DNA of 64,000 nt from an uncultured Actinomycetes bacterium (GTDB taxonomy: Bacteria > Actinomycetota > Thermoleophilia > Gaiellales > Gaiellaceae): contig CAVZIX010000018.1 of assembly GCA_963775395.1 (NCBI GenBank), positions 2,935 through 66,934 of the forward strand, written 5' to 3'. Both the position numbers and the translations under genes were made by a program. Positions 5,866 through 43,401 of this stretch are shown one piece after another. The first letter of the stretch is position 1; the number at the start of each line of letters is the position of its first letter. The notes beneath the pieces are model-generated. The model saw nothing but the letters and a program-made list of their open reading frames with translations, made no database searches and was not told the DNA's origin.

Positions 5866-5961
5866 AGCCTTCCGGGCCCTGATGATGTGGTTGGATCACG
5901 CTCAGAAGGAAGGCGCAGGTCCTCCACCTGATCACCCGACCGGCCAGGAAAGGAGCTAGGC

Positions 5962-7356
5962 ATGCCGCTTAGCCACCCGAAGGGACCGCCCCGCTCGAGC
6001 GCCGACGACCTCGGCGTTGCACCCCTGTTCACCCTGGAGGGCGCGAAGATCCCGCGCCACCAGCTTCCGGAGGGCGAGCTTCCTCCGGACGTGGCCTACC
6101 AGATCATCCACGACGAGCTGATGATCGACGGCAACGCCCGCCTCAACCTGGCCACCTTCGTCACCACCTGGATGGAGCCGCAGGCGCAGGCGCTCATGTC
6201 CGAGTGCTTCGACAAGAACATGATCGACAAGGACGAGTACCCGCAGACCGCCGAGCTCGAGATGCGCTGCGTCTCGATCCTCGCGCGGCTGTGGAACGCG
6301 CCGGACGCCGACCAGGCCACCGGCTGCTCGACGACCGGCTCGAGCGAGGCGGCGATGCTGGGCGGGCTCGCGCTCAAGCGCCGCTGGCAGCACCGGCGCA
6401 AGGCCGAGGGCAAGCCGATCGACTCGCCCAACATCGTCATGGGGATCAACGTCCAGGTCTGCTGGGAGAAGTTCGCCAACTACTGGGACGTGGAGATGCG
6501 CCTGGTGCCGATGGAAGGCGATCGCCTGCATCTCTCCGCGGAGGAGGCGGTGAAGCTCTGCGACGAGAACACGATCGCGGTCGTCCCGGTGCTCGGCTCC
6601 ACGTTCGACGGCTCGTACGAGCCGGTCAAGGAGATCTGCGACGCGCTCGACGAGCTGCAAGCCGGCTCGGACCTCGACGTCCCCGTCCACGTCGACGGCG
6701 CGTCCGGGGCGTTCGTCGCGCCCTTCGTCGACCCTGATCTCGAGTGGGACTTTCGCCTCCCGCGAGTGGCGTCGATCAATGTCTCCGGCCACAAGTACGG
6801 GCTCGTCTACCCCGGCGTCGGCTGGGTTGTCTGGCGCGATGCGGACGCGCTCCCCGACGACCTCGTCTTCTGGGTCAACTACCTCGGCGACAACATGCCG
6901 ACGTTTGCGCTGAACTTCTCCCGCCCGGGCGCGCAGGTCGTCGGCCAGTACTACAACTTCCTCCGACTGGGGTTCGAGGGGTACCGGCGCGTGCAGGAGT
7001 ACGCGCGCGAGGTGGCCACGAACCTGTCCGCGCGGATCGCCGAGCTGGGGCCGTTCCAGCTCATCACGAAGGGCGACGAGCTGCCGGTCTTCGCCTTCGC
7101 GCTGAAGGACGAGATCGACAACTTCACGGTCTTCGACGTCTCGAACGCCCTGCGCGAGCGCGGCTGGCTCCTGCCTGCGTACACGTTTCCCAAGAACCGC
7201 GAGGACCTCGCGGCGCTGCGCGTCGTCGTCAAGCGTGGGTTCAGCGAGGACCTCGCCGACCTGCTGATCCATGACCTGGAACGCCAGCTGCCCCGGTTGC
7301 AGAAGCAGTCCGCTCCCGTCCACGAACGCGACACGGCGACCAGCTTCCACCACTAG
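5962..7356 (+). CDS. gadB: Glutamate decarboxylase (PLP-dependent, group II)
   Basis: The 464-aa ORF follows an AGGAAAGGAG RBS. It contains ...DGNARLNLATFVTTWMEPQAQALM...DKDEYPQTAELEMRCV...INVSGHKYGLVYPGVGWVVWRD (S-G-H-K PLP lysine). It aligns along its full length with bacterial and plant GAD. Confidence 0.93.
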   Translation: MPLSHPKGPPRSSADDLGVAPLFTLEGAKIPRHQLPEGELPPDVAYQIIHDELMIDGNARLNLATFVTTWMEPQAQALMSECFDKNMIDKDEYPQTAELEMRCVSILARLWNAPDADQATGCSTTGSSEAAMLGGLALKRRWQHRRKAEGKPIDSPNIVMGINVQVCWEKFANYWDVEMRLVPMEGDRLHLSAEEAVKLCDENTIAVVPVLGSTFDGSYEPVKEICDALDELQAGSDLDVPVHVDGASGAFVAPFVDPDLEWDFRLPRVASINVSGHKYGLVYPGVGWVVWRDADALPDDLVFWVNYLGDNMPTFALNFSRPGAQVVGQYYNFLRLGFEGYRRVQEYAREVATNLSARIAELGPFQLITKGDELPVFAFALKDEIDNFTVFDVSNALRERGWLLPAYTFPKNREDLAALRVVVKRGFSEDLADLLIHDLERQLPRLQKQSAPVHERDTATSFHH

Positions 7357-8992: not shown

Positions 8993-9035
8993 TGCGCTTA
9001 GCTTCCTCCGGGTGCGGTATACCTGATCTACACAG

Positions 9036-10871
9036 ATGAGTAAGCCCGTCGAGCAGCGCGATCGGGTCGTCATCCGCTTCGCCGGGGACTCGGGGGACGG
9101 AATGCAGCTCACCGGCGGCCGCTTCGCCAGCGAGACCGCACTCCTCGGCAACGACCTCTCCACGCTTCCGGACTTTCCGGCCGAGATTCGCGCGCCCGCG
9201 GGCTCGCTGCCCGGGGTCTCGGGCTTCCAGATCCACTTCTCGGACCACGACATCCTCACACCCGGGGACGCCCCCGATGTACTCGTGGCCATGAACCCGG
9301 CGGCGCTGAAGGCGAACGTGAGGGGGCTCCCCAAGGGCGCCACGATCATCGTCAACACGGACGCGTTCAACGAGCGGAACCTCCAGAAGGCCGGGTACGC
9401 GGCGAACCCGCTCGAAGACGGCTCGCTGGGCGAGTTCCGGGTGCAGCCCGTGCCGCTCACGTCGCTGACGATCGAGGCGCTGAAGGAGTTCGACGTCTCC
9501 AAGCGCGAGGCGGAGCGGTCGAAGAACATGTTCGCGCTCGGGCTCATGTCCTGGCTCTACAGCCGGCCGACCGAGGGCACGATCACCTTCCTCGAGCAGA
9601 AGTTCGCGCGCAGCCCCGAAATCGCGCAGGCGAACGTGAAGGCCTTCAAGGCCGGCTACGCCTTCGGCGAGACCACCGAGGAGTTCGCGGTCCGGTACGA
9701 GGTCCGGCCCGCGCAGCTCGCCCCCGGCACGTACCGCAACGTCACCGGCAACCAGGCGCTCGCCATGGGGCTCATAGCGGCGAGCGTGCAGAGCAAGCTG
9801 CCGCTCTTCCTCGGCGCGTACCCGATCACGCCCGCGTCCGGGATCCTCGAGGAGCTCGCGCGGCACAAGGCCTTCGGCGTGCGGACCTTCCAGGCCGAGG
9901 ACGAGATCGCCGCCGTCGGCGCGGCGCTGGGCGCCTCGTTCGGGGGCGCGCTCGGCGTCTCCACCTCGAGCGGCCCGGGCGTCGTCCTCAAGGCGGAGAC
10001 GATCGGCCTTGCAGTGACGCTCGAGCTCCCGCTGGTCATCCTCGACATCCAACGCGCCGGCCCGTCGACCGGGATGCCGACGAAGCCCGAGCAGGCGGAC
10101 CTGCTCATGGTGCTCTTCGGGCGGAACGCCGAGTCGCCGGTGCCGGTCATCGCCGCCTCGACGCCCGGCGACTGCTTCGCCACGGCGATCGAGGCCGCAC
10201 GGATCGCGCTCAAGTTCCGGACGCCCGTGTACCTCCTCTCGGACGCCTACCTCGCCCACGGTTCCGAGCCGTGGCTCGTGCCGGACGTCGCGTCGCTCCC
10301 CGACATCTCGACGACGTTCGCCGACAAGCCGAACGACGGCGACCGCTTCCTCCCGTACGTTCGCGACGACGACACGCTGGCCCGCCAGTGGGCGCTGCCG
10401 GGCACGCCGGGCCTCGAGCACCGCATCGGCGGGCTCGAGAAGGAGGAGCGCACCGGCAACATCTCCTACGAGCCCGACAACCACGACCTGATGGTGCGGC
10501 TCCGGGCGCGCAAGGTGGCCGGGATCGCGGGCGACATCCCCAGGCTCGAAGTGGACGAGCAGCCGGGTGCGCGGCTCCTCGTGCTCGGCTGGGGCGGCAC
10601 CTACGGGTCGATCGCCGCGGCGGTGCGGCGGGTCCGCGCCCGCGGCGGCGCCGTCGACCACGCGCACCTCACCTACCTGAACCCGTTCCCGCGGAACCTG
10701 GGCGAGGTGCTCCGCTCGTACGACCGCGTGCTCGTCCCCGAGATGAACCTCGGCCAGCTCCTCAAGCTCGTGCGCGCCGAGTTCCTCGTCGACGCGGTCG
10801 GCTACAACCGCGTTCGCGGCGTCCCGTTCACCTCGGCCGAGCTGGCCGACGCCATCCTCCCGCTGACATGA
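9036..10871 (+). CDS. korA: 2-oxoglutarate/2-oxoacid:ferredoxin oxidoreductase subunit alpha
   Basis: The 611-aa ORF begins VVIRFAGDSGDGMQLTGGRFASETALLGNDLSTLPDFPAEIRAPAGSLPGVSGFQIHF... This is the fused gamma/alpha KorA architecture seen in mycobacterial KorA. Confidence 0.92.
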   Translation: MSKPVEQRDRVVIRFAGDSGDGMQLTGGRFASETALLGNDLSTLPDFPAEIRAPAGSLPGVSGFQIHFSDHDILTPGDAPDVLVAMNPAALKANVRGLPKGATIIVNTDAFNERNLQKAGYAANPLEDGSLGEFRVQPVPLTSLTIEALKEFDVSKREAERSKNMFALGLMSWLYSRPTEGTITFLEQKFARSPEIAQANVKAFKAGYAFGETTEEFAVRYEVRPAQLAPGTYRNVTGNQALAMGLIAASVQSKLPLFLGAYPITPASGILEELARHKAFGVRTFQAEDEIAAVGAALGASFGGALGVSTSSGPGVVLKAETIGLAVTLELPLVILDIQRAGPSTGMPTKPEQADLLMVLFGRNAESPVPVIAASTPGDCFATAIEAARIALKFRTPVYLLSDAYLAHGSEPWLVPDVASLPDISTTFADKPNDGDRFLPYVRDDDTLARQWALPGTPGLEHRIGGLEKEERTGNISYEPDNHDLMVRLRARKVAGIAGDIPRLEVDEQPGARLLVLGWGGTYGSIAAAVRRVRARGGAVDHAHLTYLNPFPRNLGEVLRSYDRVLVPEMNLGQLLKLVRAEFLVDAVGYNRVRGVPFTSAELADAILPLT

Positions 10872-23546: not shown

Positions 23547-23876
23547 TCAGGCCTGTGCAGGCTCTGCCAGGCCGAGCGACTGCTCGAGCATCCGCTTCGG
23601 CTGAGCGCCGATCGCGGCTGCCGCAGGCTCGCCGCCCTTGAAGAGGACGATCGTGGGGATCGAGAGGATCCCGTACCGGTGTGCGAGCTCGGGCTCCTCG
23701 TCGATGTTGACCTTGACGACGCGAAGCTCGTCGCCCCGCTCGTCCGCGATCTGATCGAGGATGGGGGAGACGGCACGGCAAGGGCCGCACCATTCCGCCC
23801 AGAAGTCGACGATCACCGGGGTCTCGCTCGCGAGCACCTCGGTGTCGAACTCAGTGGTCGTGATTGGGTTTGCCAT
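23547..23876 (-). CDS. trxA: Thioredoxin
   Basis: ATG at 23876 follows a GGAGAGG RBS. MANPITTTEFDTEVLASETPVIVDFWAEWCGPCRAVSPILD... has the canonical WCGPC site. Confidence 0.93.
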   Translation of the reverse strand: MANPITTTEFDTEVLASETPVIVDFWAEWCGPCRAVSPILDQIADERGDELRVVKVNIDEEPELAHRYGILSIPTIVLFKGGEPAAAAIGAQPKRMLEQSLGLAEPAQA

Positions 23877-23904
23877 ACCTCTCCAAACGTAGACTGACCG
23901 CCAG

Positions 23905-26900
23905 ATGTTCCGCACCCTAGCGCGCGTCCCCGATCACCCTGCGCTCGAGCTGGAGATCCTCGACTGGTGGGAGAAGCGGGGAACCTTCGAGCAGCTCCGC
24001 GAGCTGAATCGCGGCGGGCCCGTCTGGAGCTTCGTCGACGGTCCGGTGACCGCGAACAAGACGCTCGCGATCCACACGGCGTGGGGGAGGACCCTCAAGG
24101 ACGTCTTCCAACGCTACAAGGCGCTCCAGGGGTTCGACCAGCGCTACCAGAACGGTTTCGACTGCCAGGGCCTCTGGATCGAGGTCGGCGTCGAGCGCGA
24201 GCTCGGGCTCAACTCGAAGCGGGAGATCGAGGAGTACGGACTGGCGGAGTTCGCGCGCAAGTGCCACGAGAAGGTCGTCTGGTCGGCCGCCGAGATCACG
24301 CGCGGCTCGAAGCGCCTCGGCCAGTGGATGGACTGGGGCAACGATTACTTCACATTCTCGGACACGAACATCGAGTACATCTGGCGCTTCCTGCGCAAGA
24401 TGCACGACGACGGCCACCTCTACCTCGGCCACCGCTCGACCGAGTGGTGCCCCCGCTGCGGGACATCAATCTCGGCCCACGAGCTCGTCGGGAACTACGA
24501 GGACCGCACGGACCCGTCGCTCTTCGTCCGCTTCCCGCTCGTCGACCGGCCCGGGCAGTCGCTCACCGTCTGGACGACGACGCCTTGGACGCTACCCGCG
24601 AACGTGGCCGCCGCGGTCAAACCGGAGGCCGAGTACGGCCGGCACGAAAACGGAGAGTGGGTGGCGGTCGCGCGCGATCCGCACGAGACGTTCGCGGAGC
24701 GCGTCAAGGGCGCCGAGCTGGTCGGCCTGCGGTACGAGGGCCCGTTCGACCACCTCCCGGCGGTGCAGGGCGTCGAGCACCGGGTCATCCCCTGGGAGGA
24801 TGTCTCGCTGGCGGAGGGAACGGGCATCGTCCACATCGCGCCGGGGAGCGGCGCCGAGGACTTCGAGCTCTCGCGTGTCCACGACCTGCCCGTGCTCGTG
24901 CCGGTCGACGAGGCCGGACGCTTCTACGCGGACTACGGCTGGCTCCACGGTCAGGGAACCTCCGAGGCCGCGGAGCAGATCGTCGTCGACCTCGCCGAGC
25001 GCGGTCGCCTTGTCGGCGCCGGGGAGATCGAGCACCGCTTCCCCTTCTGCTGGCGTTGCCACACGCCGCTCATCTTCCGCGTCGCCGACGACTGGTTCAT
25101 CGGCGTCGAGGAGTTGCGGCCACGGCTTCTCGCCGCGAACGCGACCGTCAAATGGACGCCCGAGTACTTCGGGAAGCGCATGGAGGACTGGCTCCGCAAC
25201 TTGGGGGACTGGAACATCTCGCGGCGCCGCTACTACGGGCTGCCGCTCCCCATCTACCCCTGCGACTGCGGCCACGTGACCGTGATCGGGTCGAGAGCCG
25301 AGCTGGAGGAGAAGGCGACCGCGGGCCTCGACGAGCTGGAAGAGCTGCGCCGCCCCTGGATCGACGACGTGCCAATCCGGTGCGAGGCCTGCGGCAACAA
25401 GGAGGTCCGGCGGATCCCCGAGGTCGGCGACGTCTGGCTCGACGCGGGCATCGTGCCCTTCTCGACCCTCGGCTGGGAGAACCCGGAGTGGATCGAGCAC
25501 GGATACGGGACCGGCGCGGCCAAGGGCCTGACGGGTGCGGACCTCCCCGACCACGCCTATTGGGAGACCTGGTTCCCCGCGCACTGGGTCTCGGAGATGC
25601 GCGAGCAGATCCGCCTCTGGTTCTACTCGCAGCTCTTCATGTCGGTCGCGCTCGTCGACCGCGCGCCGTTCCGTGAGGTGCTCGGCTACGAGAAGATGCT
25701 CGACGAGCACGGCCGGGCGATGCACGGCTCGTGGGGGAACATGATCGACGCCGAGGACGCCTTCGCGCGCATGGGCGCCGACGTCATGCGCTGGCAGTTC
25801 TGCGCGCAGCCTCCGGATCGCAACCTCCTCTTCGGCTACGGGCCGGCGAACGAGATCAAGCGGAACCTCCTCACGCTCTGGAACTCGGTTCGCTTCCTCG
25901 TCGACTACGGGAACATCCAGGGGTTCACGCCGCGCTACGCCGACCTCGACGAGCCCCCGCTCGCCGACGATGCGCGGGCGCTCGACCGCTGGCTGGTCGC
26001 TCGCACGCAGCAATACGTCCATGACGCGACCCAGGCGCTCGACGACCAGCTCACGTACCGCCTCGTGGAGGGCTTCGACCAGTTCGTCGACGATGTCTCC
26101 AACTGGTACATCCGCCGCTCGCGCCGCCGCTTCTGGGACGGGGACGAGACGGCGCTTCGCGTCCTCTGGCATGCGCTCGTTCAGGGCATCCGCGCGATCT
26201 CGCCGGTGATGCCCTTCCTGGCTGAGCATCTGTGGCGCAGCCTGGTCGCCGAAGCGTGCGAGGGCGCGCCGGAGAGCGTCTTCCTCGCCGGCTGGCCGCA
26301 GGCGGGCGAGCCGGACACGGCCCTTCTGGAGGAGATCGCCGAGCTACGGTCGATCGTCGGCCTCGGCAACCGTGCGCGGGACTCGGCGGGGATGAAGCTG
26401 CGCCAGCCCCTCAGAGCACTTGTCGTCGAGGGCGCCGAACGGGCGACGAGCCACGGCGACGAGATTGCGGAAGAGCTCCGCGTGAAGTCGGTCTCGTTCG
26501 AGCAGATCGCCGGCGCCAAGGTCCGCGCGAAGCCGAACCTGAAGCTCCTCGGGCCCAGGCTCGGCGCGGAACTCCCGAAGATCAGCGCGGCGCTCGCCGA
26601 AGGGCGCTTCGAGCACCTCCCGGACGGAGGCGCCAGGGTCGAGGGGCACGACCTTGCCCCGGACGAGGTCTTCGTCCAGCGTGAGGCGCCCGACGGCTGG
26701 ACCCTCGCCGAGGCCACGGGACTGGCTGTCGCGCTCGACATCCGCCTCGACCCCGAGCTCGAGCTCGAAGGCCGGGTCTACGACCTCGTGCACACGGTGA
26801 ACTCGATGCGCAAGGAGCAGGGGCTCGAGATCACCGACCGCATCGTCCTGACGCTTCCCGACGGCGAGGACCTGCAACGGTTCGCGGACTGGATCAAGTC

Positions 26901-27141: not shown

Positions 27142-27234
27142 CTTTGAAAGCTATGAGCATATGATTTACAAGTTATAGAACATCGCGAGAGCGGCGATGG
27201 TCGCAGGGCCTCCCTATCATCAAGGCCACACGCC

Positions 27235-30200
27235 GTGAGCGACGAAACTCAAACGATGCTCCACGCCGTGCCGTTGCTGGCCCTCGCGGTCCTGTACGGG
27301 CTCGTGTCGATCCTGCTCGGCATCTCGCTCGTCCGCGAGCGCAGAACCTCGTGGCTCGGGGTCGGGATCTGGCTCCTCTTCGCGCTCGTGGCCGCGCTCT
27401 CCGGGCTTCTCGGCGGGCTTGCGCTCACCGACGAGGACGTCTTCGAGGGCGAGCCGACCTGGCTCGTGATCGGCGGGTCGGTGGCCGTTGCGATCCCGGG
27501 CCTGATCATGCTCTTCCGCGGGCACGACCGAAGCCTCCTCTTCGCCGCCCGCCAGCGGGTTCGCGAGGCGGAGCAGCTCGCCACCGAGCGCGGGCGCGAG
27601 GCCGACGCGATCTCGCGGCTCTCCGCCACGCTCTCACGGACGCACACGGCCGACGAGGCCGTGGAGTCCCTCTTCGACGAGGTCGAGGCGCTGCTCGACC
27701 CCGACGTGCTCCTCCTCGCCAGGGTCGACGAGGAGTCGCGCCGCGCGGTTGGCTTCGCGACTCGCGGCGTCGACGCCGACTGGTGGGGCACCGTCTCTCT
27801 CGACCTGGACGAGGATACGGGCGCGCTCGTCCAGACGGCGCGCAGCCGCGAGCGCGTCGCGATCTACGACGTCCCGAGCGCGCCGAACGTCAACCGGCGG
27901 CTCGCCGAGGCCGTCGCCGCGAAGAGCGCTGCGTTCGTTCCGGTCATCTCCGAAGGGCAGGTCGCCGGCGTTCTCGTCGTCGTCAGCCAGCACGCACACC
28001 GGCAGTTCACCGAGTCGGAGCTCGACATCGTCCAGGGGATGGCCAGCGAGGCAGCGCTCGCGCTCAGCCGTACGCGGTCGAGCGAGGCTCTGCGCGCGGC
28101 GCTGGAGCGCGAGCGGCTAATCGCCGAGATCGGGCGTCGCGTCCGCTCGGAGCTCGATCTGGACACCGTCCTCCAGGTCGCTGTCGAGGAGACCGCGAAG
28201 GCGATCGGCGTCACGCGGAGCTTCATCCGCCTCGGCGAGCGAGGGGAGCCGATGCCCGTGCTCGCCGAATGGAACGCGCCGGGCGTCGAGCCTGTGGGCG
28301 ACGAGGCGCCGAACCTGCCGGCCATGAACCTCGCGGCGCGCGACCGCCGCACCGTGGCTATTGCCGACGTGGAGGCGGCGAGCGAGCTCCGCGAGGACCC
28401 CTCCCTCGGGAGCCCGGACACCCTCCTTGCCCTGGGAGCACGCTCGACCCTCGCCACGCCGATCCTCGTCTTCGACCGCATGATCGGGGTTTTCAGCCTG
28501 CACAGAGGGGAGGCCAGGCCCTGGGAAGCTGGCGAGATCGCGCTGGCCGAGGCCGTGGCCAGGGAACTGGGCCTCGCCATCCACACCGCCCGCCTGCTGG
28601 GCGAGAACGAGCAGCGCCTCCGGCGGCAGGAAACGCTCATCAAGGCCGCCCAGGTGCTCACGAGCGACCTGCACTTCGAGTCGGTCATCACTCGCCTCGT
28701 GCAGGAGGTCGTGTCGCTCATCGGCGCCGACGCCGCGGACTGCTGGATCCTCGAGCCCGACCGCAAGCTGCTCCGGTGCCGCGCCGTCGTCGGCGTTCCG
28801 GAGTGGAACGTCGGGCGGCAGATCCCGCCCGAGGGGACGATCGGGCGCGCGCTCCAGTCTGGTCGCACGGTGCTCACCCACGACTTCGCGTCGACGGAGC
28901 AGCCGGCGCCCAGCCCTCCGTACGCAGTCTTCCACGACGTCATGTGTGCGCCGATCATGTGGCTCGGCGAGGTGCGGGGCGTCCTCGGCGTCTGCGACCG
29001 CGAGCCCGGGCGCTTCGAGGCCGGCGACGTCGAGGTGATCGAGGCGTTCGCGCGGTTCGCCTCGCTCGCGCTGCACAACGCCGAGAGCTTCGAGGAGCGG
29101 GAGCGTCAGGCGCAGGTGCAGCGCGGCTTCTACCGGATCGCCGAGGTGCTCGGCTCGCCGCTCTCGCTCGCCGAGACGCTCGACGCGCTGGCGCAGGCCG
29201 CCTCGGAGGCGCTCGGCGGCGCATCCGCGGTCGTTCTCGAGCGCACCGGCGACAAGGTCGTCCTCGCCGGCGCTTACGAGCTCCCCGACTCGATCCGCAG
29301 GCGCTTCGCCGCAGGCGTCGGGGCGTCCACGTGGCCGTTCGCGATCGAGGCTGGGGAGGGGCGCATCCTCGCCTCCGCAGAGCTCGCCGGCGACGACCGC
29401 TTCGACTCTGGCCTGCGCGAGCTGCTCACGGCCGAGGGCTACGGCTCGCTGATCTGCACCCCTGTCGCCGGCGTCCGCGAGCAGGCGTACGCCGGCGTCG
29501 TCCTCTTCAACGGCACGCGCGCGTTCACCGACGAGGACGTCCTGCTTACCCGGCACGTCAGCGACGCGGCGCAGGGCGCGCTCGAGCGCAGCGAGCTCTT
29601 CGAGAGCGAGCGCCGCGCGCGCATGTTCTCGCAGCGCCTCGCGCGTCTCGGGACGTTCCTGGGGACGAGCCTCGACCCGGCGGTCGTGCTCGACGAGGTT
29701 GCGCGAGAGGCGCCCGGCCTGCTCGATGCCGACACCGCGGTCGTTCGCCTGCTGGCCGGGGACGACCTCGTCGTGCGCGCGGCCCACGGGCCGGGGACGG
29801 CGCGCCTCGTAGGCACGTCCGCCAGCTCGTCGGGAGGCCTTTCGGGCGGGGTGGTCCAGGCTCGTTCGCCGCAGGCCGTGCGCGACGGTCGGGAGCAGCC
29901 GAGGCTCTCGCGCGGTGACGCGCTCCTCGAACAGGACATGACCGCCGCTGTCGCAGTCCCGATGATCGCGCACGGGAGCGGCGTCTACGGCGTTCTCGCG
30001 GTGTACGCGCGGACGCCGCGGACGTGGCGGGACGACGAGCTCGAGTCTCTCGCCGCACTCGCGGCGTCGGCCTCCGCGTCGATTGCGAACGCGGAGCTCT
30101 ACCAGCGCGTTGCCGAGGAGCGGGAACGCGGCGCGGCAATTCTCGCGAACATCGCCGACGGGATCGTGGCCGTCGGTCGCGACGACCGGATCGTGCTCTG

Positions 30201-31176
30201 GAACGCGATGGCGGAGCACATCACGGGCGTGCCGGCGTCGGAGGCTCTCGGCCGTCTCGTCCCCGAGGTCCTCCAGCGCGAGTTGACCGCCGACGGGTCC
30301 GAGCCGCCCGGCGAGCGCTACCTCGCCGTGCGACGCGGGGGAAACGAGGTCTGGATCGCCCTCAGCGAGGCCGTCATGCGCGATCCCTCCGGCGGGGTCG
30401 CCGGTCGGATCTTCGCCTTCCGCGACGTGTCGAGCGAGCGGGTGGTCGAGCAGATGAAGTCCGACTTCGTCTCTACCGTCTCGCACGAGCTGCGAACCCC
30501 CCTGACCTCGATCTACGGCTTTGCCGAGACACTCATGCGGCGCGACGTCGACTTCAGCGACCCTGAGCGGGCGACGTTCCTTCGCTATATCGCGTCGGAG
30601 TCCGAGCGCCTGATCGGGATCGTCGACGACCTGCTCAACGTCGCGCGACTCGAGGCGGGGACGCTCGCGGTTGCGCTGGAGCCCACCGATCTCGGGACCG
30701 TGGCGCGCGAGGCGGCAGTCGGGATCGAGACACACATCGGCGAAGGTCACCGCTTCGCGGTCGAGGTGGAGCCGGGCGAGCTCGTCGTCAACGCCGACCC
30801 GGAGAAGCTCGGCCAGGTACTGTCGGCGCTTCTGGCCAACGCCGTCAGCTACTCGCCCGAGGGAGGCACGATCACGATCTCGGCCCGGCGCCGAGCCGAC
30901 ATCGCCGAGATCGTCGTCGCCGACGAAGGCGTCGGCATCGCCCGCGCCGACCTCCAGCGCATCTTTACGAAGTTCTTCCGGGCCGAGCGCGAGGGCGTGA
31001 GCGCCGGGCGCTCGGGACTCGGGCTCTTCCTCGTCCGCGGCCTTGTGACCGCGATGGGCGGGCGCATCTGGGTCGAGTCGGACGAAGGTCGGGGCTCGCG
31101 CTTCACCTTCGAGCTCCCGCTCGCCGGGGGCGAGCCTGCCGACGGGCCGCGGGTGGAGGCCGCGGCGACGCAGTGA
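27235..31176 (+). CDS. Membrane-anchored multi-GAF (about 5) / PAS sensor histidine kinase
   Basis: 1313 aa with N-terminal TM helices and repeated GAF-like modules. A PAS region (ILANIADGIVAVGRDDRIVLWNAMAEHITG) is followed by the HisKA H-box (FVSTVSHELRTPLTSI) and HATPase_c N, G1 and G2 boxes (LLANAVSYSP; VADEGVGI; GLGLFLVRG). Confidence 0.92.
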   Translation: MSDETQTMLHAVPLLALAVLYGLVSILLGISLVRERRTSWLGVGIWLLFALVAALSGLLGGLALTDEDVFEGEPTWLVIGGSVAVAIPGLIMLFRGHDRSLLFAARQRVREAEQLATERGREADAISRLSATLSRTHTADEAVESLFDEVEALLDPDVLLLARVDEESRRAVGFATRGVDADWWGTVSLDLDEDTGALVQTARSRERVAIYDVPSAPNVNRRLAEAVAAKSAAFVPVISEGQVAGVLVVVSQHAHRQFTESELDIVQGMASEAALALSRTRSSEALRAALERERLIAEIGRRVRSELDLDTVLQVAVEETAKAIGVTRSFIRLGERGEPMPVLAEWNAPGVEPVGDEAPNLPAMNLAARDRRTVAIADVEAASELREDPSLGSPDTLLALGARSTLATPILVFDRMIGVFSLHRGEARPWEAGEIALAEAVARELGLAIHTARLLGENEQRLRRQETLIKAAQVLTSDLHFESVITRLVQEVVSLIGADAADCWILEPDRKLLRCRAVVGVPEWNVGRQIPPEGTIGRALQSGRTVLTHDFASTEQPAPSPPYAVFHDVMCAPIMWLGEVRGVLGVCDREPGRFEAGDVEVIEAFARFASLALHNAESFEERERQAQVQRGFYRIAEVLGSPLSLAETLDALAQAASEALGGASAVVLERTGDKVVLAGAYELPDSIRRRFAAGVGASTWPFAIEAGEGRILASAELAGDDRFDSGLRELLTAEGYGSLICTPVAGVREQAYAGVVLFNGTRAFTDEDVLLTRHVSDAAQGALERSELFESERRARMFSQRLARLGTFLGTSLDPAVVLDEVAREAPGLLDADTAVVRLLAGDDLVVRAAHGPGTARLVGTSASSSGGLSGGVVQARSPQAVRDGREQPRLSRGDALLEQDMTAAVAVPMIAHGSGVYGVLAVYARTPRTWRDDELESLAALAASASASIANAELYQRVAEERERGAAILANIADGIVAVGRDDRIVLWNAMAEHITGVPASEALGRLVPEVLQRELTADGSEPPGERYLAVRRGGNEVWIALSEAVMRDPSGGVAGRIFAFRDVSSERVVEQMKSDFVSTVSHELRTPLTSIYGFAETLMRRDVDFSDPERATFLRYIASESERLIGIVDDLLNVARLEAGTLAVALEPTDLGTVAREAAVGIETHIGEGHRFAVEVEPGELVVNADPEKLGQVLSALLANAVSYSPEGGTITISARRRADIAEIVVADEGVGIARADLQRIFTKFFRAEREGVSAGRSGLGLFLVRGLVTAMGGRIWVESDEGRGSRFTFELPLAGGEPADGPRVEAAATQ

Positions 31177-35811: not shown

Positions 35812-35943
35812 TTAGGTCGCCGGCTTCGGCGTGACCAGCCGCAGCAGGCGCTCGAGCGTGGCCGCGTCGAGCTCGCCGCGGTTGCGGGCGAGCGCGGCCA
35901 GGAGCGCGAGCTGCGCGCGGGTTGTCTCCTGCTCGCTCTTCAT
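35812..35943 (-). CDS. Small hypothetical protein (43 aa)
   Basis: MKSEQETTRAQLALLAALARNRGELDAATLERLLRLVTPKPAT has very high GC3 and no clear RBS. It is divergent from iclR. Confidence 0.3.
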   Translation of the reverse strand: MKSEQETTRAQLALLAALARNRGELDAATLERLLRLVTPKPAT

Positions 35944-36026
35944 GCCGCGTCGTTCGTGACGGCGGTCACAGATCCTTTCCGCAGGCTCGGCCGTGCCGGT
36001 TGCGCGATCGGCACATGTGTTGCACA

Positions 36027-36767
36027 ATGCGCAACGTGCAGTCCGCCGACAAGGCGATGGCGATCCTCTCGGCCTTCGACGAGGGCCGTGAGGATCTCGG
36101 CGTGTCCGAGCTTGCTGCCGAGCTGGGGACGCACAAGAGCACCGTCTCGCGGCTGCTCGCCACGCTGGAGCGCCGGGGCCTCGTGCGCCGCGTCGGCGAT
36201 CGGTTTGCGCCCGGACCGGAGCTGGCTCGGCTCGGCGGGCTCGCCGTGCGGGGGATCACACTTGTTGAGGCGGGGCGGCCAACGCTCGAGCGGCTCGCGG
36301 AGCGAACCGGGGAGACCGTCAACCTCGCCGTTCGCGAAGGGGCGCGCGCGCTGAACGTGCTGCAGGTGGACGCCGACCACTTCGTCGGGGTCACCGACTG
36401 GACCGGCCGCGCAGCACCCCTGCATGCGACGGCCAACGGCAAGGCGCTGCTCGCGTTCGGAAGCGAGCAGCTCCCGGGCCGGCTCTCGAAGCTGACGACG
36501 CGCACGATCGTCGACCGCGGCGACCTCCGCGCGGAGCTGGGTCGCGCGCGTACGGCGGGCTTCGCCGTGGCCGTGGAGGAGCTCGAGGTTGGCCTCAACG
36601 CCGTGGCCGCGCCGGTCTTCGACGCGTCCGGCTCCTGTGTGGCCGCGGTGTCGGTCTCCGGGCCCGCCTACAGGCTTCCGGAGCCGAAGCTTCCTGCCGC
36701 GGGTGACCTGTGCGCGGCCGCTGCAGCGGAGATCTCTCGCCGGCTCGGCTACCGGAGGGCTGCCTGA
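36027..36767 (+). CDS. IclR-family transcriptional regulator (first cistron of the grd operon)
   Basis: MRNVQSADKAMAILSAFDEGREDLGVSELAAELGTHKSTVSRLLATLERRGLV is an HTH_IclR domain, followed by an IclR effector domain (...NLAVREG...PLHATANGKALLAF...). ATG at 36015 is an alternative start. Confidence 0.9.
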   Translation: MRNVQSADKAMAILSAFDEGREDLGVSELAAELGTHKSTVSRLLATLERRGLVRRVGDRFAPGPELARLGGLAVRGITLVEAGRPTLERLAERTGETVNLAVREGARALNVLQVDADHFVGVTDWTGRAAPLHATANGKALLAFGSEQLPGRLSKLTTRTIVDRGDLRAELGRARTAGFAVAVEELEVGLNAVAAPVFDASGSCVAAVSVSGPAYRLPEPKLPAAGDLCAAAAAEISRRLGYRRAA

Positions 36768-37948
36768 TGGCCTGGGAGCTCGCGACCTTTCCGGCCGAGC
36801 TGATGGGCGACCTCCCCGGGCTCGACGGTGTCAACGTTGACGTCGTGCGGGCCGGCGATCCGGTGCGCATCACCCACGTGCTCGACGCCGTCGAGCCGCG
36901 CGTGCGCCCCGACGGTCGGGCCGCGTTCCCCACGGACGGCAAGGCCGGCGAGGGCCGGACGAACCGGCTCGACGGGGTGGTCGTCGTCTCCTGCCTCGAT
37001 TTCCCGGCCGAGGAACGCCCGCTCCATGAGCAGGAGGCCGTCATCGACCTCGCGGGGCCCGGGGCCGAGCTCGCGCCGTTCGCGCAGGCGACGAACGTCG
37101 TGCTCACGTTCCGTCCGCGCGACGGTCTGGGCAACGAGGAGCTCGAGGCGTGGGCGCGCACGACGACGCTCGCAGTCGCCGAGGACCTCGCCAGGCCGAC
37201 GCTCGGCGCCGAGCCCGCCGTCGTGGAGCGTTTCGAGCGCGGCCCTGCGGACGCGAGTCTTCCGTCGGTTGCCGCGCTCGTCCAGCTCTCCGACCTCGGA
37301 CCTCTCTACTACCAATACCTCTACGGCGTCCCCGTTGGACAGGCCGGCCTGCCGCGCGCGGTCGACCCGGCCGAGCTCCTCGACGGCGTCCTGACCTGTG
37401 GCGAGTACCACTGGGCAGGGCTCCGAAACCCGACGATCCTCTTCCAGCGCAACGAGCTCGTTCGCACGCTCTACCGCGAGCACGGCCGACGGCTGCGGTT
37501 CGCCGGCGTCGTGCTGATGCGTGGGTACGAGCAGACGGCCGAGGACAAGCAGCGCGCGGCGACGGCGGCCGCTGCAGCGGCCGTCGAGCTCGGAGCGGAC
37601 GGGGCGCTCGTGACCACCGATGCCGGCGGAAACTCGCACACGGACGTGATGCTCACCGTACGGGCGTGCGAGCAGGCGGGCGTGCGGACGACCACGATCG
37701 TCGCCGAGATGGCCGACCCGGGCTCGACGAGCCCTGGGCTCACGGACTGGGTGCCCGAGGCCGACTCGATCGTGTCGGCCGGGAACGCCGAGGAGCTCGT
37801 TCCCGCGTGGACGCCGGAGAGGGTCATCGGCGGTGACACGCTTCTCGACGGGAGCGACGCGCGCGACGCGGGCCCGATCCCGACCCGCAACTACCTCGGG
37901 GCGACCAACCAGATGGGCCAGCACGCGCTGAGGGCGGTCGCCTGGTGA
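36767..37948 (+). CDS. grdE: Glycine/sarcosine/betaine reductase component B proprotein (alpha/beta subunits, GrdE-like)
   Basis: The ATG shares its A with the iclR TGA (TGATG). ...VRAGDPVRITHVLDAVEPRVRPDG... and ...LDGVLTCGEYHW...FAGVVLMRGYEQTAEDKQRAA...LGADGALVTTDAGGNSHTDVML...GVRTT are collinear with clostridial GrdE as I recall it, including the processing Cys (Cys211, 37397-37399). Confidence 0.85.
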   Translation: MAWELATFPAELMGDLPGLDGVNVDVVRAGDPVRITHVLDAVEPRVRPDGRAAFPTDGKAGEGRTNRLDGVVVVSCLDFPAEERPLHEQEAVIDLAGPGAELAPFAQATNVVLTFRPRDGLGNEELEAWARTTTLAVAEDLARPTLGAEPAVVERFERGPADASLPSVAALVQLSDLGPLYYQYLYGVPVGQAGLPRAVDPAELLDGVLTCGEYHWAGLRNPTILFQRNELVRTLYREHGRRLRFAGVVLMRGYEQTAEDKQRAATAAAAAAVELGADGALVTTDAGGNSHTDVMLTVRACEQAGVRTTTIVAEMADPGSTSPGLTDWVPEADSIVSAGNAEELVPAWTPERVIGGDTLLDGSDARDAGPIPTRNYLGATNQMGQHALRAVAW

Positions 37949-39222
37949 GAGCGGTCCACTATCTCAACCAGTTCTTCGCCGGCCTGGGTGGAGAAGAGGC
38001 GGCGGAGACTCCGCCGACGCGCCTGGATGGGGCGGTGGGGCCCGGCCGAGGGCTGGCCGCTGCACTCGAGGGGATCGAGATCGTCGCGACGCTCGCCTGT
38101 GGCGACGACTACTTCGGCGAGCACGAGGACGAGGCCCTCGAGACGCTGCTCGGCCTCCTCGAGGCGGAGCGGCCGGACGTGCTCATCGCCGGCCCGGCCT
38201 TCGGCTCGGGCCGCTACGGCTATGCCTGTGCGCGTTTTTCGCGCATGGCGGCCGAACGGCTCGACATCCCCGCGCTCGCCGCGATGCACGAGGAAAATCC
38301 GGGTGTTGGGGCGACCGACGGCAAGGCGCTCGTCGTCCCCACTGCGGTCAACGTCGCCGGCATGCGGGACGCGCTTCCGCGCATGGCCTCGCTCGCGGAG
38401 GCACTCGCTTCGGGCCGCGAGCTCGGCCCGCCCGACGAGGAGGGGTATCTGCCGCGCGGTTTCCGGCGGAACCGGCTCGACGAGAAGCCCGGCGCCGAGC
38501 GGGCGGTCGAGCTCCTGCTCGCGAAGCTCGCCGGCGAGACCCGCAGCGAGGTGGCATCGGGCTTCGACCGCGTCGAGCCGCCGGCGCCCGTCGAGGACCT
38601 CTCGCAAGCGCTCGTCGCGCTCGTCACCGAGGCGGGGTGCGTGCCGCAGGGAAATCCGGACCGGCTCCCGACGATCCGCGCACAGGGCTGGCTTCGCTAC
38701 TCGCTGGCGGATGAGATGAGCCTCTTGTCCGGCCGGTACGAGTCCGTCCACGGCGGCTTCGACGTCACACTCGCGAACGAGGACCCCAACCGTCTCGTCC
38801 CGCTCGACACGGCCCGGGCCCTCGAGGCCGAGGGCCGGCTTGGCCGGGTCCACGACGCCTTCTACACGACCACCGGCAACGGGACTCCGGTCGCGGCGTC
38901 CACGCAGTTCGGTCGCGAGATCGCTGCGGAGCTCACGGAGGCAGGGGTGCACGCCGTGCTCCTGTCCGGGACCTGAGGGACCGGGACGCGCTGCGGGTCA
39001 GTGCTGGCGAAGGAGATCGAGCGGGCGGGGATTCCGACGGTATTCGTGACCTCGCTTCCGACGATCGCGACGATGATCGGCGCCAACCGCATCGTTCGCG
39101 GGCCCGCGATCACGCATCCGTTCGGGCTCGACGAGGCGGAGCGGCGCAGGATCGTCGAGCGGGCGCTCGAGATGCTCGAGACCGAGGTCGAGCCGGCGAC
39201 CGTGTGGGAGCTGGAGGGGTGA
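37945..39222 (+). CDS. grdB: Glycine/sarcosine/betaine reductase selenoprotein B (GrdB family), Sec encoded by in-frame TGA at 38974
   Basis: The GTG overlaps the grdE stop (GTGA). It begins MRAVHYLNQFFAGLGGEE... and reaches ...AVLLSGT-TGA-GTGTRCGSVLAKEIERAGIPTVFVTSLPTIATMIGANRIVRGPAITHPFG...WELEG*. The frame is open from 38977 to 39222, and ORF-track entries 37945..38976 and 39001..39222 are in the same frame. Confidence 0.88.
38974..38976 (+). other. UGA recoded as selenocysteine (GrdB residue 344)
   Basis: This is the position of the conserved Sec in the T-U-G-T-x-T-R-C-G context of selenoprotein B. The downstream frame is open and homologous. Confidence 0.8.
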
Positions 39223-39229
39223 GCCGCGG

Positions 39230-40564
39230 ATGAGCGCCGGGGCCGCGATCCACGCCTGCTCCATGGTCCTCGCGCACGCGCCGGACCTCGTCAGGCACGG
39301 CTCGAAGCCGACGAGGGAGCTGGCGGCCGACTCCGACGGGCTGCTGGCCTCGCTCTCGGGTGCCTTGCGCAGCTACGACGACGCGCTCGCCTATCCACCC
39401 AACCAGGCGCTGATCGGGAATCTCCGCCCAGAGGCGCTCTGGGAGCTCGAGCGGCCATGGTGGCGGCAGCCGGTCGACCCGCGCAGCGAGGGGCCGTTCG
39501 GCGTGATCGTCGACCAGGCCGAGCTCTACCGGCGCATGCAGGAGGCGGATCACTTCGGGCTCTTCAAGCTCGACGGGACCGCTGCGAGAAACGGCGGTCT
39601 GACGATCAGCGAGGACGGCCGCGATATCGGCTCGATGGCTGGAGCGCACGACGTCGACGAGAGCCTCTCGGCGGCGGTGCTGCTCGAGAACCTCGCCTGC
39701 AAGGCCACGGGCGCGCTCGCGCTCGAGCACGTGCTCCGCATCTCGACGCTCCCTCCGGAAGACGTCCAGTACGTGATCGGGAGCGGGGAGGAGGCCGTCG
39801 GCGACCGCTACCAGCGGGGCGGCGGCAACCTCGCCAAGGCGATCGCCGAGCAGGCAAGGTGCGTGAATGCCTCCGGCAGCGACGTGAAGGCGTTCTGCTG
39901 CGGCCCCGTGCACGCACTCGTCGTTGCCGGAGCTCTGGTCGCGGCCGGCGTCTATCCGCATGTGCTCGTCGTGGCGGGTGGGTCACTGGCCAAGCTGGGG
40001 ATGAAGTTCGCGGGCGCCCTTCGTCATGGCGTGCCGGTGCTCGAGGACGTTCTCGCGGGCTTCGCCGTCGTTGTCGGCCCATCCGGCGACGGAGCGCCTG
40101 AGATCCGCCTCGACGCCGTCGGGCGGCACCGCGTCGGCTCGGGCTCGGCCCAGCAGGCCGTGCTCGAAGATCTGGTCGTCGAGCCGCTCGAGCGGCTCGG
40201 TCGGCGCATCCTCGACGTCGACCGCTACGCGACCGAGCTCCACGATCCGGAGATCACGGAGCCGGCAGGGGCGGGCAACGTCCCGAGCCGCAACTACAAG
40301 CTCATCGGCGCCCTCGCCGTGCGCCGTGGCGAGCTGGCCCGCGAGGAGCTGGACGGGTTCGAGCGCGCTCACGGCCTGCCGGGCTTCTCTCCGACGCAGG
40401 GGCACGTCGCCTCGGCGGTCCCGTGGCTCCCGCACGGCCTCGAGGCGCTGCGGGCGGGCGAGATCGGCTCGACCATGCTGCTCGCGAAGGGCTCGCTCTT
40501 CCTCGGGCGCATGACCGAGCTGGCCGACGGCCTATCGATCCTCGTGGAACCGGGAAAGGAGTAG
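39230..40564 (+). CDS. grdC: Glycine reductase complex component C, beta subunit (thiolase-fold, GrdC-like)
   Basis: ATG lies 12 nt after GGAGG. ...HACSMVLAHAPDLVRHGSKP...YPPNQALIGNLRPE...LENLACKATGALALEHVL...GGGNLAKAIAEQA...SDVKAFCCGPVHALVVAGALVAAG...VVAGGSLAKLGMKF...GNVPSRNYKLIGALAV...GFSPTQGHV...LLAKGSLFLGRMT. This matches GrdC as I remember it and fits the context. Confidence 0.78.
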   Translation: MSAGAAIHACSMVLAHAPDLVRHGSKPTRELAADSDGLLASLSGALRSYDDALAYPPNQALIGNLRPEALWELERPWWRQPVDPRSEGPFGVIVDQAELYRRMQEADHFGLFKLDGTAARNGGLTISEDGRDIGSMAGAHDVDESLSAAVLLENLACKATGALALEHVLRISTLPPEDVQYVIGSGEEAVGDRYQRGGGNLAKAIAEQARCVNASGSDVKAFCCGPVHALVVAGALVAAGVYPHVLVVAGGSLAKLGMKFAGALRHGVPVLEDVLAGFAVVVGPSGDGAPEIRLDAVGRHRVGSGSAQQAVLEDLVVEPLERLGRRILDVDRYATELHDPEITEPAGAGNVPSRNYKLIGALAVRRGELAREELDGFERAHGLPGFSPTQGHVASAVPWLPHGLEALRAGEIGSTMLLAKGSLFLGRMTELADGLSILVEPGKE

Positions 40565-40566
40565 AC

Positions 40567-40896
40567 ATGCCGGTCGACGCGACTGTCGACACCTACCACG
40601 ACCTGACGAGCGACGGCAGCGTCCTCGTGGACTTCTGGGGCCCGCGCTGCCAGCCTTGCCTCGCGATGATGCCCACGATCGCGCAGCTCGAGGAGGAGGC
40701 CGGCGGGGCAGTTCGGGTCGTCAAGGTCAACTCGTCGGAGAACCGCGACATCTGCCGCGAGCTGCGCGTCTTCGGCCTGCCGACGTACGTTCTCATGCAG
40801 AACGGAGAAGAGCTGGAGCGGCTCTCGGGCGAGGTGTCCAAGGGCGACATCGAGCGCGCGTTCGCGACGCTCGCGAAGGGAGGTGAGGCTGCATGA
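40567..40896 (+). CDS. trxA: Thioredoxin-fold protein with C-Q-P-C active site (grd-associated)
   Basis: ATG at 40567 follows [50 protein letters not shown]...VVKVNSSEN...[14 protein letters not shown] has thioredoxin topology, but with CQPC instead of CGPC. Confidence 0.88.
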
Positions 40897-41357
40897 AGCT
40901 CGACGGCAAGAAGGTGATCGCGCTCGGCGAGCGGGACGGCGTGCCCGGCCCCGCGATTGCCGCGTGCGTCTCCTCGGCGGGAGCCGAGGTCGTCTTCGTC
41001 GAGACGGAGTGTTTCGTCTGAACGGCTGCCGGGGCCATGGACCCGGAGAACCAGGACCGCATCATGGCCCTGGTCGACGAGCACGGCGCGGGCGACCTCG
41101 TGGTCGTCCTCGGCGCAGCCGACCTCGAGTCGCTCGAGGTCGCAGCCGAGACGGTCACGGTGGGAGACCCGGCGTACGTCGGTCCATTGGCAGGAGTCCA
41201 GTTGGGGCTCCCCGTCGTTCACATCCTCGAAGAGGGCGTCAAGGAGCAGGTCGATGCCGGCGTCTACGACGAGCAGGTCGGGCTGCTCGAGATGACCCTG
41301 GACGTCGACCAGGTGCGCGAGGCGGCGAGGAAGTTCCCGGGCCGCGACGGCGGCTAG
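40893..41357 (+). CDS. grdA: Glycine/sarcosine/betaine reductase complex selenoprotein A, Sec encoded by in-frame TGA at 41019
   Basis: The ATG overlaps the trx stop (ATGA). [59 protein letters not shown]...[30 protein letters not shown]...[11 protein letters not shown]. This is the GrdA signature ECFV-U-TAAGAMD. ORF 41037..41357 is the in-frame tail. Confidence 0.92.
41019..41021 (+). other. UGA recoded as selenocysteine (GrdA residue 43)
   Basis: It sits exactly at the U of the invariant CFVUTAAGAMD motif and is in frame with the ATG at 40893 (126 nt). Confidence 0.88.
41029..41046 (+). other. Candidate SECIS-like hairpin downstream of the grdA UGA
   Basis: CCGGG (41029-41033) pairs with CCCGG (41042-41046) around the loop GCCAUGGA, starting 8 nt after the UGA. 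This was folded by eye only. Confidence 0.3.
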
Positions 41358-41532: not shown

Positions 41533-42291
41533 TCAGCGCGGCTCGGGGTCCGGCGCGGACTCCTCTTCGGCCATGAACTTGACGAACACGACCGCGAAGG
41601 CGGCGAAGAACACGATCGCCTCACTCACCGCCATCGCGATGCCGGCGATCTGCTGGTCCTCGAGCGGCGTCAGGTCGCGCAGGCGCGGTGCAGCGACGTA
41701 GAAGTCGTAGAGCGGCTCGGTGAGGAGAGCGAGCAGGAGGCCGAGCGGGCTCGCGAAGACGAAGGCGATGAAGATGTAGGCGGCCTTCGCGCCCGACGAG
41801 AGGGCGCGGGGCGCGCTGTGCACCACGGGCCACCAGAGAAAGAAGCCGGTCACGAGATATGTGAGGTGCTCCAGGTGCAGGAGCGCGTGGTGCTCGAGGG
41901 CGGTGTCGTAGGCCGCGGGGATGTGCCACACGACATAGCCGCCGAGCCACAGCGGCAGCGCGATCGCCGGCGCGCTCAGGAGGCGAATCACGCGCACGCG
42001 CGCGAGAGACTCGGCCAGGGACGGCGGGAGGCTGGCGACCAGAAGAAGCGGGATCCACTCGGCGAGCGCGACGTTCTGGACGAGGTGAGCCGTGAGGAGG
42101 TAGTGGAGCGCAAGCGTCCCGAGCGGCGTGACGGACACTGCGAGGAACAGGACGACCGCCGCGACGAAGCATGCCGCCCGGACCCTTGACGGTCGATGCC
42201 TGCGGGCCGCGACCAGATAGGCGGTCGTCAGGACGGCGACGGCGGCGAGCTCGACCCACGCCGTTTGCCAGCTCGACGGCGAGGGCGCCAC
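41533..42291 (-). CDS. Cytochrome c oxidase assembly factor CtaG-like (Caa3_CtaG family) membrane protein
   Basis: 252 aa with a GTG start and about 7 TM segments. ...HLVQNVALAEWIPLLLV...GGYVVWHIPAAYDTALEHHALLHLEHLTYLVTGFFLWWPV... is typical of the family. Confidence 0.75.
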   Translation of the reverse strand: MAPSPSSWQTAWVELAAVAVLTTAYLVAARRHRPSRVRAACFVAAVVLFLAVSVTPLGTLALHYLLTAHLVQNVALAEWIPLLLVASLPPSLAESLARVRVIRLLSAPAIALPLWLGGYVVWHIPAAYDTALEHHALLHLEHLTYLVTGFFLWWPVVHSAPRALSSGAKAAYIFIAFVFASPLGLLLALLTEPLYDFYVAAPRLRDLTPLEDQQIAGIAMAVSEAIVFFAAFAVVFVKFMAEEESAPDPEPR

Positions 42292-42331
42292 GACGCCCCG
42301 AAGGATACGGGCGCGGGCGCCCTGCGCGTGA

Positions 42332-42706
42332 CTAGATCAGCCAGGGATCGACGTAGGCCGGATCCTTGCGGGCGAGCCAGTTGCGTACGTAGATGCCGCC
42401 TGCGACCAGCGGGATCCCCGGGAAGGCCGTGAGGAGCACGACCGTCGCCCAGAGTGCCGATGGGAGTCCGCCTGCGATCGCCGCGACCACGACGGGGACA
42501 CCCGTGAAATAGAGCGCCTTCCAGTCGTCGACGACGTAGCCGAGGCCGAAATGCACGACGAGCGGTACCAGCAGGAGCACAAGCACCGCGACCGCAGGCA
42601 GCGACGTCTCCGTCGCGGCGAAGAAGACGATCCAGGCCGTCATGGCCGTGCAGTAGACGAGGATGGCCTCGCGCGGTGTGAGCTCGTTGATCCGTTCGAG
42701 AGTCAC
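42332..42706 (-). CDS. Small hypothetical membrane protein (3-4 TM)
   Basis: GTG at 42706 follows GGAGGGGA (7-nt spacer). VTLERINELTPREAILVYCTAMTAWIVFFAA... The longer ORF start at 42793 lacks an RBS. Confidence 0.6.
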   Translation of the reverse strand: MTLERINELTPREAILVYCTAMTAWIVFFAATETSLPAVAVLVLLLVPLVVHFGLGYVVDDWKALYFTGVPVVVAAIAGGLPSALWATVVLLTAFPGIPLVAGGIYVRNWLARKDPAYVDPWLI

Positions 42707-42834: not shown

Positions 42835-42905
<71 letters not shown>

Positions 42906-43401
42906 CCTGGATCGTTCGCCGTTCAGTTCTCAGGATGCCGCCGAGGGACCTCTGTCGGCGATGACCGCGTCGCAGCCACCACACCCAAGCCTCTGTGAGC
43001 TGACGTTGATTCGTATCAGCGGCGACTATGAGGATCCGGCCGAGGACCCATTGTTTCGCGCTTCTGCGAGGAGCTCTGCCCCTTCGTTGATCGTCCGAAC
43101 AGCCTCTGCCAGTCCTTGTCTGGAATCTCCTGAGCGTGTCGATGCCGCGCGGGATGGCCGCGTGGAGCTTCCCACCGGCAGGGCGCGCGCAGCTGAAGTC
43201 GGCGCCGTCAGCCCGGCCGGCGCAAGCACCATGGTCGCTTCGATCTTCAAGAGCGGTATGCCGAGCAAGCGGGCACGGATACAGGCCTCGACGAGGACTC
43301 CGTCCGAGAGGCGTTTTCCTGGATCGGGAACGGCTGTTAGCCCGGCCGGAACTCTTGTCTGCGACGATCTAGGCATCGCTCAGGCCCGGCATCTGTGAGG
43401 G

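Follow-up and report, generated by a model that had tools for sequence, protein, structure and literature searches.

Does a soil actinobacterium make a selenoprotein of the glycine reductase type, from a gene that ordinary gene calling cuts in two? Few bacterial selenoproteins are as widespread as GrdA and GrdB, and the status of GrdA as one is textbook knowledge. To our knowledge, the two are known almost entirely from strict anaerobes, such as Clostridia, Synergistota, Deltaproteobacteria and spirochaetes. The Gaiellaceae are an abundant actinobacterial family of soils whose cultured members are aerobes. A literature search turned up no paper that connects selenoproteins or glycine-type reductases with Gaiella or Gaiellales, and what is already on record for the GrdA of Gaiellaceae is generic or fragmentary database annotation only.

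The DNA studied here is a 64-kb stretch (the window). Over 8-13 kb its nucleotides are 87-90% identical to MAG contigs from soil metagenomes, and one of these contigs (L006) carries the name Gaiellaceae. An earlier note, made from the letters of the window, had placed in it a grdA gene interrupted by an in-frame TGA. We followed that gene, its operon and its relatives, and find that a grd operon with two selenoproteins is conserved among soil Gaiellaceae and other soil Thermoleophilia, in over 60 genomes at species level.

Identity and coding signal of the grdA gene

The gene (40893..41357, + strand, 154 codons) opens with ATG at 40893, meets TGA at 41019-41021 as codon 43, and ends with TAG at 41355-41357; the start, internal codon and stop given in the earlier note agree with the sequence to the base. 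The residues around the TGA read ECFV-U-TAAGAMD, with Cys at codon 40 and U at codon 43 (C40-F-V-U43), which puts the in-frame UGA at the CxxU redox motif of the GrdA family (C-F-V-U-T-A-A-G-A-M-D). With the TGA written as Cys, the product scores 211.4 bits (6.3e-63; cutoff 22) on the Pfam model GRDA, PF04723, and 213.8 bits (cutoff 130) on NF040748, the equivalog for selenoprotein A of the glycine/sarcosine/betaine reductase complex. Residues 3-147 correspond to model positions 1-145 in one unbroken match that spans the TGA. Alignment to the GrdA family model, proposed in the earlier note as a check, thus runs end to end across the TGA and well over the curated cutoffs.

Upstream of the ATG lies a ribosome-binding site, GGGAGGTG, and the ATG itself overlaps the TGA stop of the preceding thioredoxin gene (ATGA), an arrangement that indicates translational coupling. 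Coding signal is present on both sides of the internal TGA. Among 66 distinct genes, divergence per site at codon positions 1, 2 and 3 is 0.094, 0.058 and 0.294 upstream of it, and 0.118, 0.080 and 0.309 downstream. From this third-position divergence on either side it follows that both halves of grdA are coding, in one frame and under purifying selection.

The product resembles the GrdA of the clostridial glycine, sarcosine and betaine reductases in its size (154 aa), in the invariant ECFV-U-TAAGAMD, in a Sec at about position 43-44, and in the linkage of its gene to grdB, grdC and a thioredoxin gene. It is about 57-66% identical to GrdA genes from low-GC metagenome contigs.

Conservation of the UGA codon

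A scan of one genome per species gave 67 grdA loci. The family and order names among them are mostly Gaiellaceae or Gaiellales; the remaining loci are labelled just uncultured Actinomycetes, Thermoleophilia or Actinomycetota, with one Acidimicrobiales. In a count that pools scan loci with four loci from an exact-match look-up and the window, the homologous codon is TGA in 68/69 close grdA loci. It is also TGA in all 82 of 82 grdA occurrences in a wider set (80 further metagenome loci, about 55 of them distant, at 57-71% identity). Kept in this way, and lying inside an unbroken GrdA model match, the in-frame TGA is far beyond chance.

The two codons that flank the UGA, GTC (Val42) and ACG (Thr44), are four-fold degenerate yet invariant in 66/66 distinct genes (41016-41024), while the third positions of codons 45-48 vary freely in the same 66. 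This pattern hints that the immediate surroundings of the UGA are constrained, possibly for its decoding.

Zhang et al. (2006) reported GrdA to be without Cys homologues. Three short ENA contigs, each from a different sample, have Cys codons at position 43 (TGC, TGC and TGT; L004:531-533, L072 and L073), where all other grdA genes have TGA. Their identity to Sec forms of a single Gaiellaceae subclade is 96-99%, with no further derived residue in common, and at least one of them (L073) is a low-coverage contig (about 1.7x). For these three, real polymorphism and sequencing error are not separable. A few close relatives may have swapped the Sec of GrdA for Cys.

Gene calls and the genetic code

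The program-made list of open reading frames holds only the tail of grdA (41037..41357, 106 aa), and contigs with an identical grdA sequence carry separate public gene calls of 42 and 106 aa. Such calls are exactly what would be expected if the TGA were a true stop, leaving either a pseudogene or two products, a 42-aa peptide and a 106-aa protein from the ATG at 41037; that Sec machinery was not found in the window (see below) would also fit. Against a true stop stand the same TGA in more than 60 species, with purifying selection on both flanks in one frame, the GrdA family model that crosses it unbroken, the ribosome-binding site ahead of the ATG at 40893, and a grdB gene that is arranged likewise and has a SECIS bearing compensatory change. 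We consider termination at this codon very improbable.

The nearest database proteins to the grdA product are fragments of 103-107 aa that start at Met49. A few entries are full-length, with Trp or Gly at position 43, and these were called under other genetic codes (P0044, P0004). They raise the question of whether UGA has been reassigned to sense, as Trp or Gly, so that position 43 would not be selenocysteine at all. We give this almost no credence. TGA is the commonest true stop in the window, where it ends 19 of the 37 family-supported ORFs, including grdB (39220-39222), and a codon that serves as a normal stop elsewhere in the window has not been reassigned. In-frame TGAs were seen in the operon only at the two canonical Sec positions, and the Trp and Gly of the database entries are artefacts of the code that the gene caller assumed; locus L074 reads TGA at codon 43.

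The expectation in the earlier note that automatic annotation would miss this gene was borne out, for the public calls are either 42-aa and 103-107-aa fragments or full-length under other codes. The grd operon is systematically mis-called as fragments in public protein sets. Correct annotation would alter how the metabolism of a dominant soil group is reconstructed, and would imply that this group requires selenium.

A predicted SECIS element in grdB, and the search for one in grdA

The earlier note had drawn attention to a small hairpin behind the UGA of grdA as a possible SECIS. The hairpin is there, at the coordinates and distance it gave: CCGGG-GCCAUGGA-CCCGG at 41029..41046 (+), with a predicted energy of -9.3 kcal/mol, separated from the UGA by 7 nt (8 nt when counted to the hairpin's own first base), with a 5-bp stem and an 8-nt loop that begins GC. 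The bacterial SECIS consensus (the bSECISearch model, as summarised in PMC13188914) has a loop of 3-9 nt, a stem of at least 4 bp, a G at loop position 1 or 2, 16-37 nt between UGA and loop, and a minimum free energy of -7.5 kcal/mol or lower. The loop, stem, first G and energy of the grdA hairpin agree with this consensus, but its UGA-to-loop spacing, 12 nt against 16-37, does not.

Comparison among relatives gives this hairpin no support either. Conserved bases of Gly, Pro and Glu codons fix three of the five pairs. The other two include wobble positions, and among 57 distinct relatives they fail to pair in 51% and 49%, so the 5-bp stem as a whole is not conserved. Shuffled controls show as much pairing and covariation, so that no covariation is demonstrated, and the region folds no better than shuffles do (z-scores -0.8 and -1.4). 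With a stem that is not conserved, an unsuitable spacing and folding like that of shuffles, the hairpin was rejected as the grdA SECIS for want of support.

Three other candidate signals in grdA were set aside: (i) An alternative helix from RNAalifold (columns 20-25 with 36-41, window positions 41038-41059) consists of codon-fixed bases only, shows no compensatory change and is absent in distant grdA genes. (ii) A window-specific helix of 10 bp (columns 13-22 with 44-53) is tied to I-M-A-L codons found in this clade only. (iii) An all-pairs covariation scan of 125 distinct grdA sequences gave only composition-driven R/Y correlations. The SECIS prediction that the earlier note had suggested thus yields no convincing element after the grdA UGA, the RNAalifold helices being weak and free of compensatory change. 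The 125 distinct sequences share no consensus structure, and when 132 distinct grdA sequences drawn from many phyla are compared, only 1 has a bulge-free hairpin that fits the bSECIS consensus. That no SECIS is obvious is therefore a trait of grdA genes at large and not peculiar to the window.

The partner gene gives a different picture. The grdB-type selenoprotein B gene (37945..39222, +, 425 codons, identified by translation and TIGR01918) has its own in-frame TGA at 38974-38976, within LLSGT-U-GTGTRCG. This TGA is kept in 62/62 relatives, and the program-made ORF calls again split the gene at it, into pieces of 343 and 73 aa. Behind it, at 38988..39004 (+), lies the hairpin GCGCUG-CGGGU-CAGUGC, 11 nt from UGA to stem and 17 nt from UGA to loop. 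Among relatives it takes the form GCGYUG-CGGNK-CARYGC, with 100% of cells paired over 42 distinct sequences, and two pairs change: a C-G pair becomes U-A in 9/42 and a G-U pair becomes G-C in 9/42. The C-G to U-A double change in its nine sequences is probably one evolutionary event. RNAalifold independently predicts the same helix.

Set against the bSECIS consensus (PMC13188914), the 6-bp stem, the 5-nt loop CGGGU, which has a G in second place and another after it, and the 17-nt spacing all fit, and the energy of the window's hairpin, -6.3 kcal/mol, falls just short of the -7.5 threshold. A closed variant of the element (columns 15-31, with a seventh pair and a 3-nt loop) satisfies all four criteria in 42 of 70 distinct grdB sequences. 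The alignment of this hairpin is nearly invariant, so that a covariance model built from it would act as a sequence probe. The grdB element makes a convincing, working-looking predicted SECIS, and its compensatory change is the best available evidence suggesting that SelB-type decoding operates in this lineage.

Family models that cross the TGA, conservation of the TGA, third-position divergence, the TGA and SECIS of grdB itself and the use of TGA as a normal stop elsewhere all support the Sec-type grdA that the earlier note had inferred. We are confident that 40893-41357 is a real GrdA gene of 154 residues in which UGA is decoded as selenocysteine, standing last in the grd operon of a Gaiellaceae host, and we infer that Sec is inserted at position 43.

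Search for Sec machinery

The genes selA, selB and selD and a tRNA-Sec were not found in the 64-kb window or within 10 kb on either side of grdA in 60 relatives. Pfam scans of about 45 further ORFs gave no SelA, SelB or SelD, and tblastn with E. coli SelD and SelB sequences as probes gave nothing in the window or in loci L001-L071. ARAGORN reported no tRNA-Sec in the window or in the 10-kb flanks of the 60 relatives. Rfam at gathering thresholds gave two tRNAs only in the window and nothing in the loci of seven relatives. A 95-nt 'tRNA-Arg(gcg)' called by ARAGORN just upstream of grdA in a Thermoleophilia relative (L061:8926-9020) was unconfirmed by Rfam and is probably a false positive.

Organization of the operon

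The genes form a translationally coupled operon in the order IclR, protein B alpha subunit, grdB, grdC, thioredoxin, grdA. At its head is an IclR-family transcriptional regulator (35922..36767, +; Pfam IclR_C 9.9e-39, HTH_IclR 6e-18). The alpha-type subunit (36767..37948, +) and grdB follow, then grdC for the protein C beta subunit (39230..40564, +; NCBIfam reduct_C_beta, 542 bits, cutoff 450) and the thioredoxin gene (40567..40896, +; Pfam Thioredoxin 2.4e-17), which leads directly into grdA. The linkage of grdA to grdB, grdC and thioredoxin recurs in the same order in the distant relative L067. A scan for promoters and terminators gave nothing above the expectation from shuffles.

The active site of the operon thioredoxin, WGPRCQPC (WGPR-C-Q-P-C), is unusual compared with WCGPC. 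The window also holds another ORF of the thioredoxin family, an ordinary one (23547-23933, -).

In the canonical complex, protein C is made from GrdC and GrdD. Here GrdC is present, at the score given above, and GrdD was seen neither in the window nor in the L060 and L067 operons; GrdD/PlsX-like and TrxB families were likewise not among the roughly 45 Pfam-scanned ORFs. The thioredoxin gene and grdA come directly after grdC, as they also do in L067, and no grdD or trxB was seen in the operon or near it. The arrangement differs from the clostridial system in its gene order (B alpha, grdB, grdC, thioredoxin, grdA), in a cluster that has no grdD, trxB or grdX, and in a non-canonical partner protein B. 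The setting differs as well, the host being a soil actinobacterium of the Gaiellaceae with 70% G+C, with a CtaG gene directly downstream of grdA.

A non-canonical protein B

The alpha-type subunit, of the GrdE/GrdG/GrdI/FarE family, has 393 aa (Pfam Gly_reductase, 248 bits), and homologues of 393 aa at 100% coverage place its ATG at 36767. Its best NCBIfam match is GrdG, at 164 bits (cutoff 780). Where canonical GrdE has DGAIVSGNCVSACDKN, the window's subunit has DGVLTCGEYHWAGLRN, which contains neither of the autoprocessing cysteines. In eleven canonical GrdE proteins from distant loci, where their genes stand just ahead of grdA, DGAIVSGN-C-VSA-C-DKN is invariant; at the positions aligned to GNC...AC our subunit has G-E-Y...A-G, and it thus does not carry the proprotein site of GrdE (SGN-C-VSA-C). 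A search of PDB sequences gave no relative of GrdA or of the alpha subunit. We also considered whether the pyruvoyl precursor might have shifted to Cys230 of this subunit and rejected the idea, the position being C, S, A or G in 57 relatives.

The grdB-type product (U read as C) scores 438 bits on TIGR01918, matching the selenoprotein B subfamily end to end, and stays below the equivalog cutoffs for GrdB (TIGR01917, 406/602), GrdF (434/800) and GrdH (373/775). At 38965-38997 its motif is GTUGTGTRC, where 31 of 33 aligned distant relatives have STUGTCTRC; it therefore shows neither the S-T-U-G-x-C-x-x-C motif nor the GrdB-level score of a canonical selenoprotein B. Judged by sequence, protein B is non-canonical, with neither subunit reaching any substrate-specific NCBIfam cutoff, and it may be a new variant.

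Known reductases offer partial parallels. FarE and the GrdI of betaine reductase are described as lacking the autoprocessing cysteines and as not being proproteins, and FarB as lacking the whole CxxC (PMC10838667). Like betaine reductase GrdI and fluoroacetate FarE, the window's alpha subunit lacks the two cysteines for autocatalytic pyruvoyl formation, and its selenoprotein B is in part like FarB in lacking one Cys of the motif after Sec. Scores of the window's proteins against the models of GrdH/GrdI and FarB/FarE are low, with 71 bits on FarE (cutoff 675), 373 on GrdH (cutoff 775) and no GrdI family listed, so that membership in either family is not established.

In clostridia, GrdA receives a carboxymethyl group on its Sec from protein B and passes it to protein C, forming a Se-S bond with its Cys that thioredoxin reduces (PMC13188914). 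By analogy, the Sec43 selenol of the window's GrdA would accept a carboxymethyl group from the substrate-specific protein B and hand it to protein C as an acetyl thioester; the Se-S bond between Sec43 and Cys40 left on GrdA would then be reduced by the operon thioredoxin. This chemistry is predicted by homology, and for the substrate we consider two readings.

One is that the operon encodes a canonical glycine reductase, turning glycine and thioredoxin into acetyl phosphate and ammonia, with GrdA acting as in Clostridium and with grdD and trxB elsewhere in the genome. GrdA and GrdC score above their equivalog cutoffs, the GrdB-type protein matches the selenoprotein B subfamily throughout, and the relatives are annotated at JGI and NCBI as glycine reductase or as component B of glycine/sarcosine/betaine reductase. 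Yet the alpha subunit lacks both cysteines of SGN-C-VSA-C, a trait described for the non-proproteins GrdI and FarE (PMC10838667), selenoprotein B falls under all three of its equivalog cutoffs, and GTUGTGTRC stands in place of STUGTCTRC. We consider the canonical reading rather unlikely. Because of the missing cysteines and the altered Sec motif, the substrate is probably not handled as the canonical enzyme handles glycine.

The other, which we put forward tentatively as one possibility, is that Gaiellaceae have a conserved selenium-dependent reductase in which GrdA and GrdC work with a new type of protein B (an alpha subunit that does not form pyruvoyl, an altered Sec motif and no grdD in the cluster). 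In oxic or fluctuating soils this enzyme would then reduce not glycine but, for instance, an acetate that is betaine-like or otherwise alpha-substituted. Through its non-canonical protein B, the operon gives tractable access to what may be a new class of substrates for this enzyme family.

Surroundings of the operon

About 180 bp downstream of grdA, and convergent with it, lies a gene for CtaG, an assembly factor of cytochrome c oxidase caa3 (41533-42336, -). This places a marker of aerobic respiration beside an enzyme family known from strict anaerobes. A tRNA-Gly(UCC) gene follows at 42835-42907; in most Gaiellaceae loci (L005-L054) it stands about 1.3-6.5 kb, usually less than 2.5 kb, downstream of grdA. 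A tRNA-Pro(UGG) gene is found upstream of the operon in many relatives, and with tRNA-Gly(UCC) makes up a conserved synteny.

Elsewhere in the window, the genes listed for the regions 5932-7356, 9027-10871 and 27157-31176 include a glutamate decarboxylase (667 bits), a 2-oxoacid:acceptor oxidoreductase alpha subunit (639 bits) and a histidine kinase of 1,313 aa with several GAF domains and a PAS domain.
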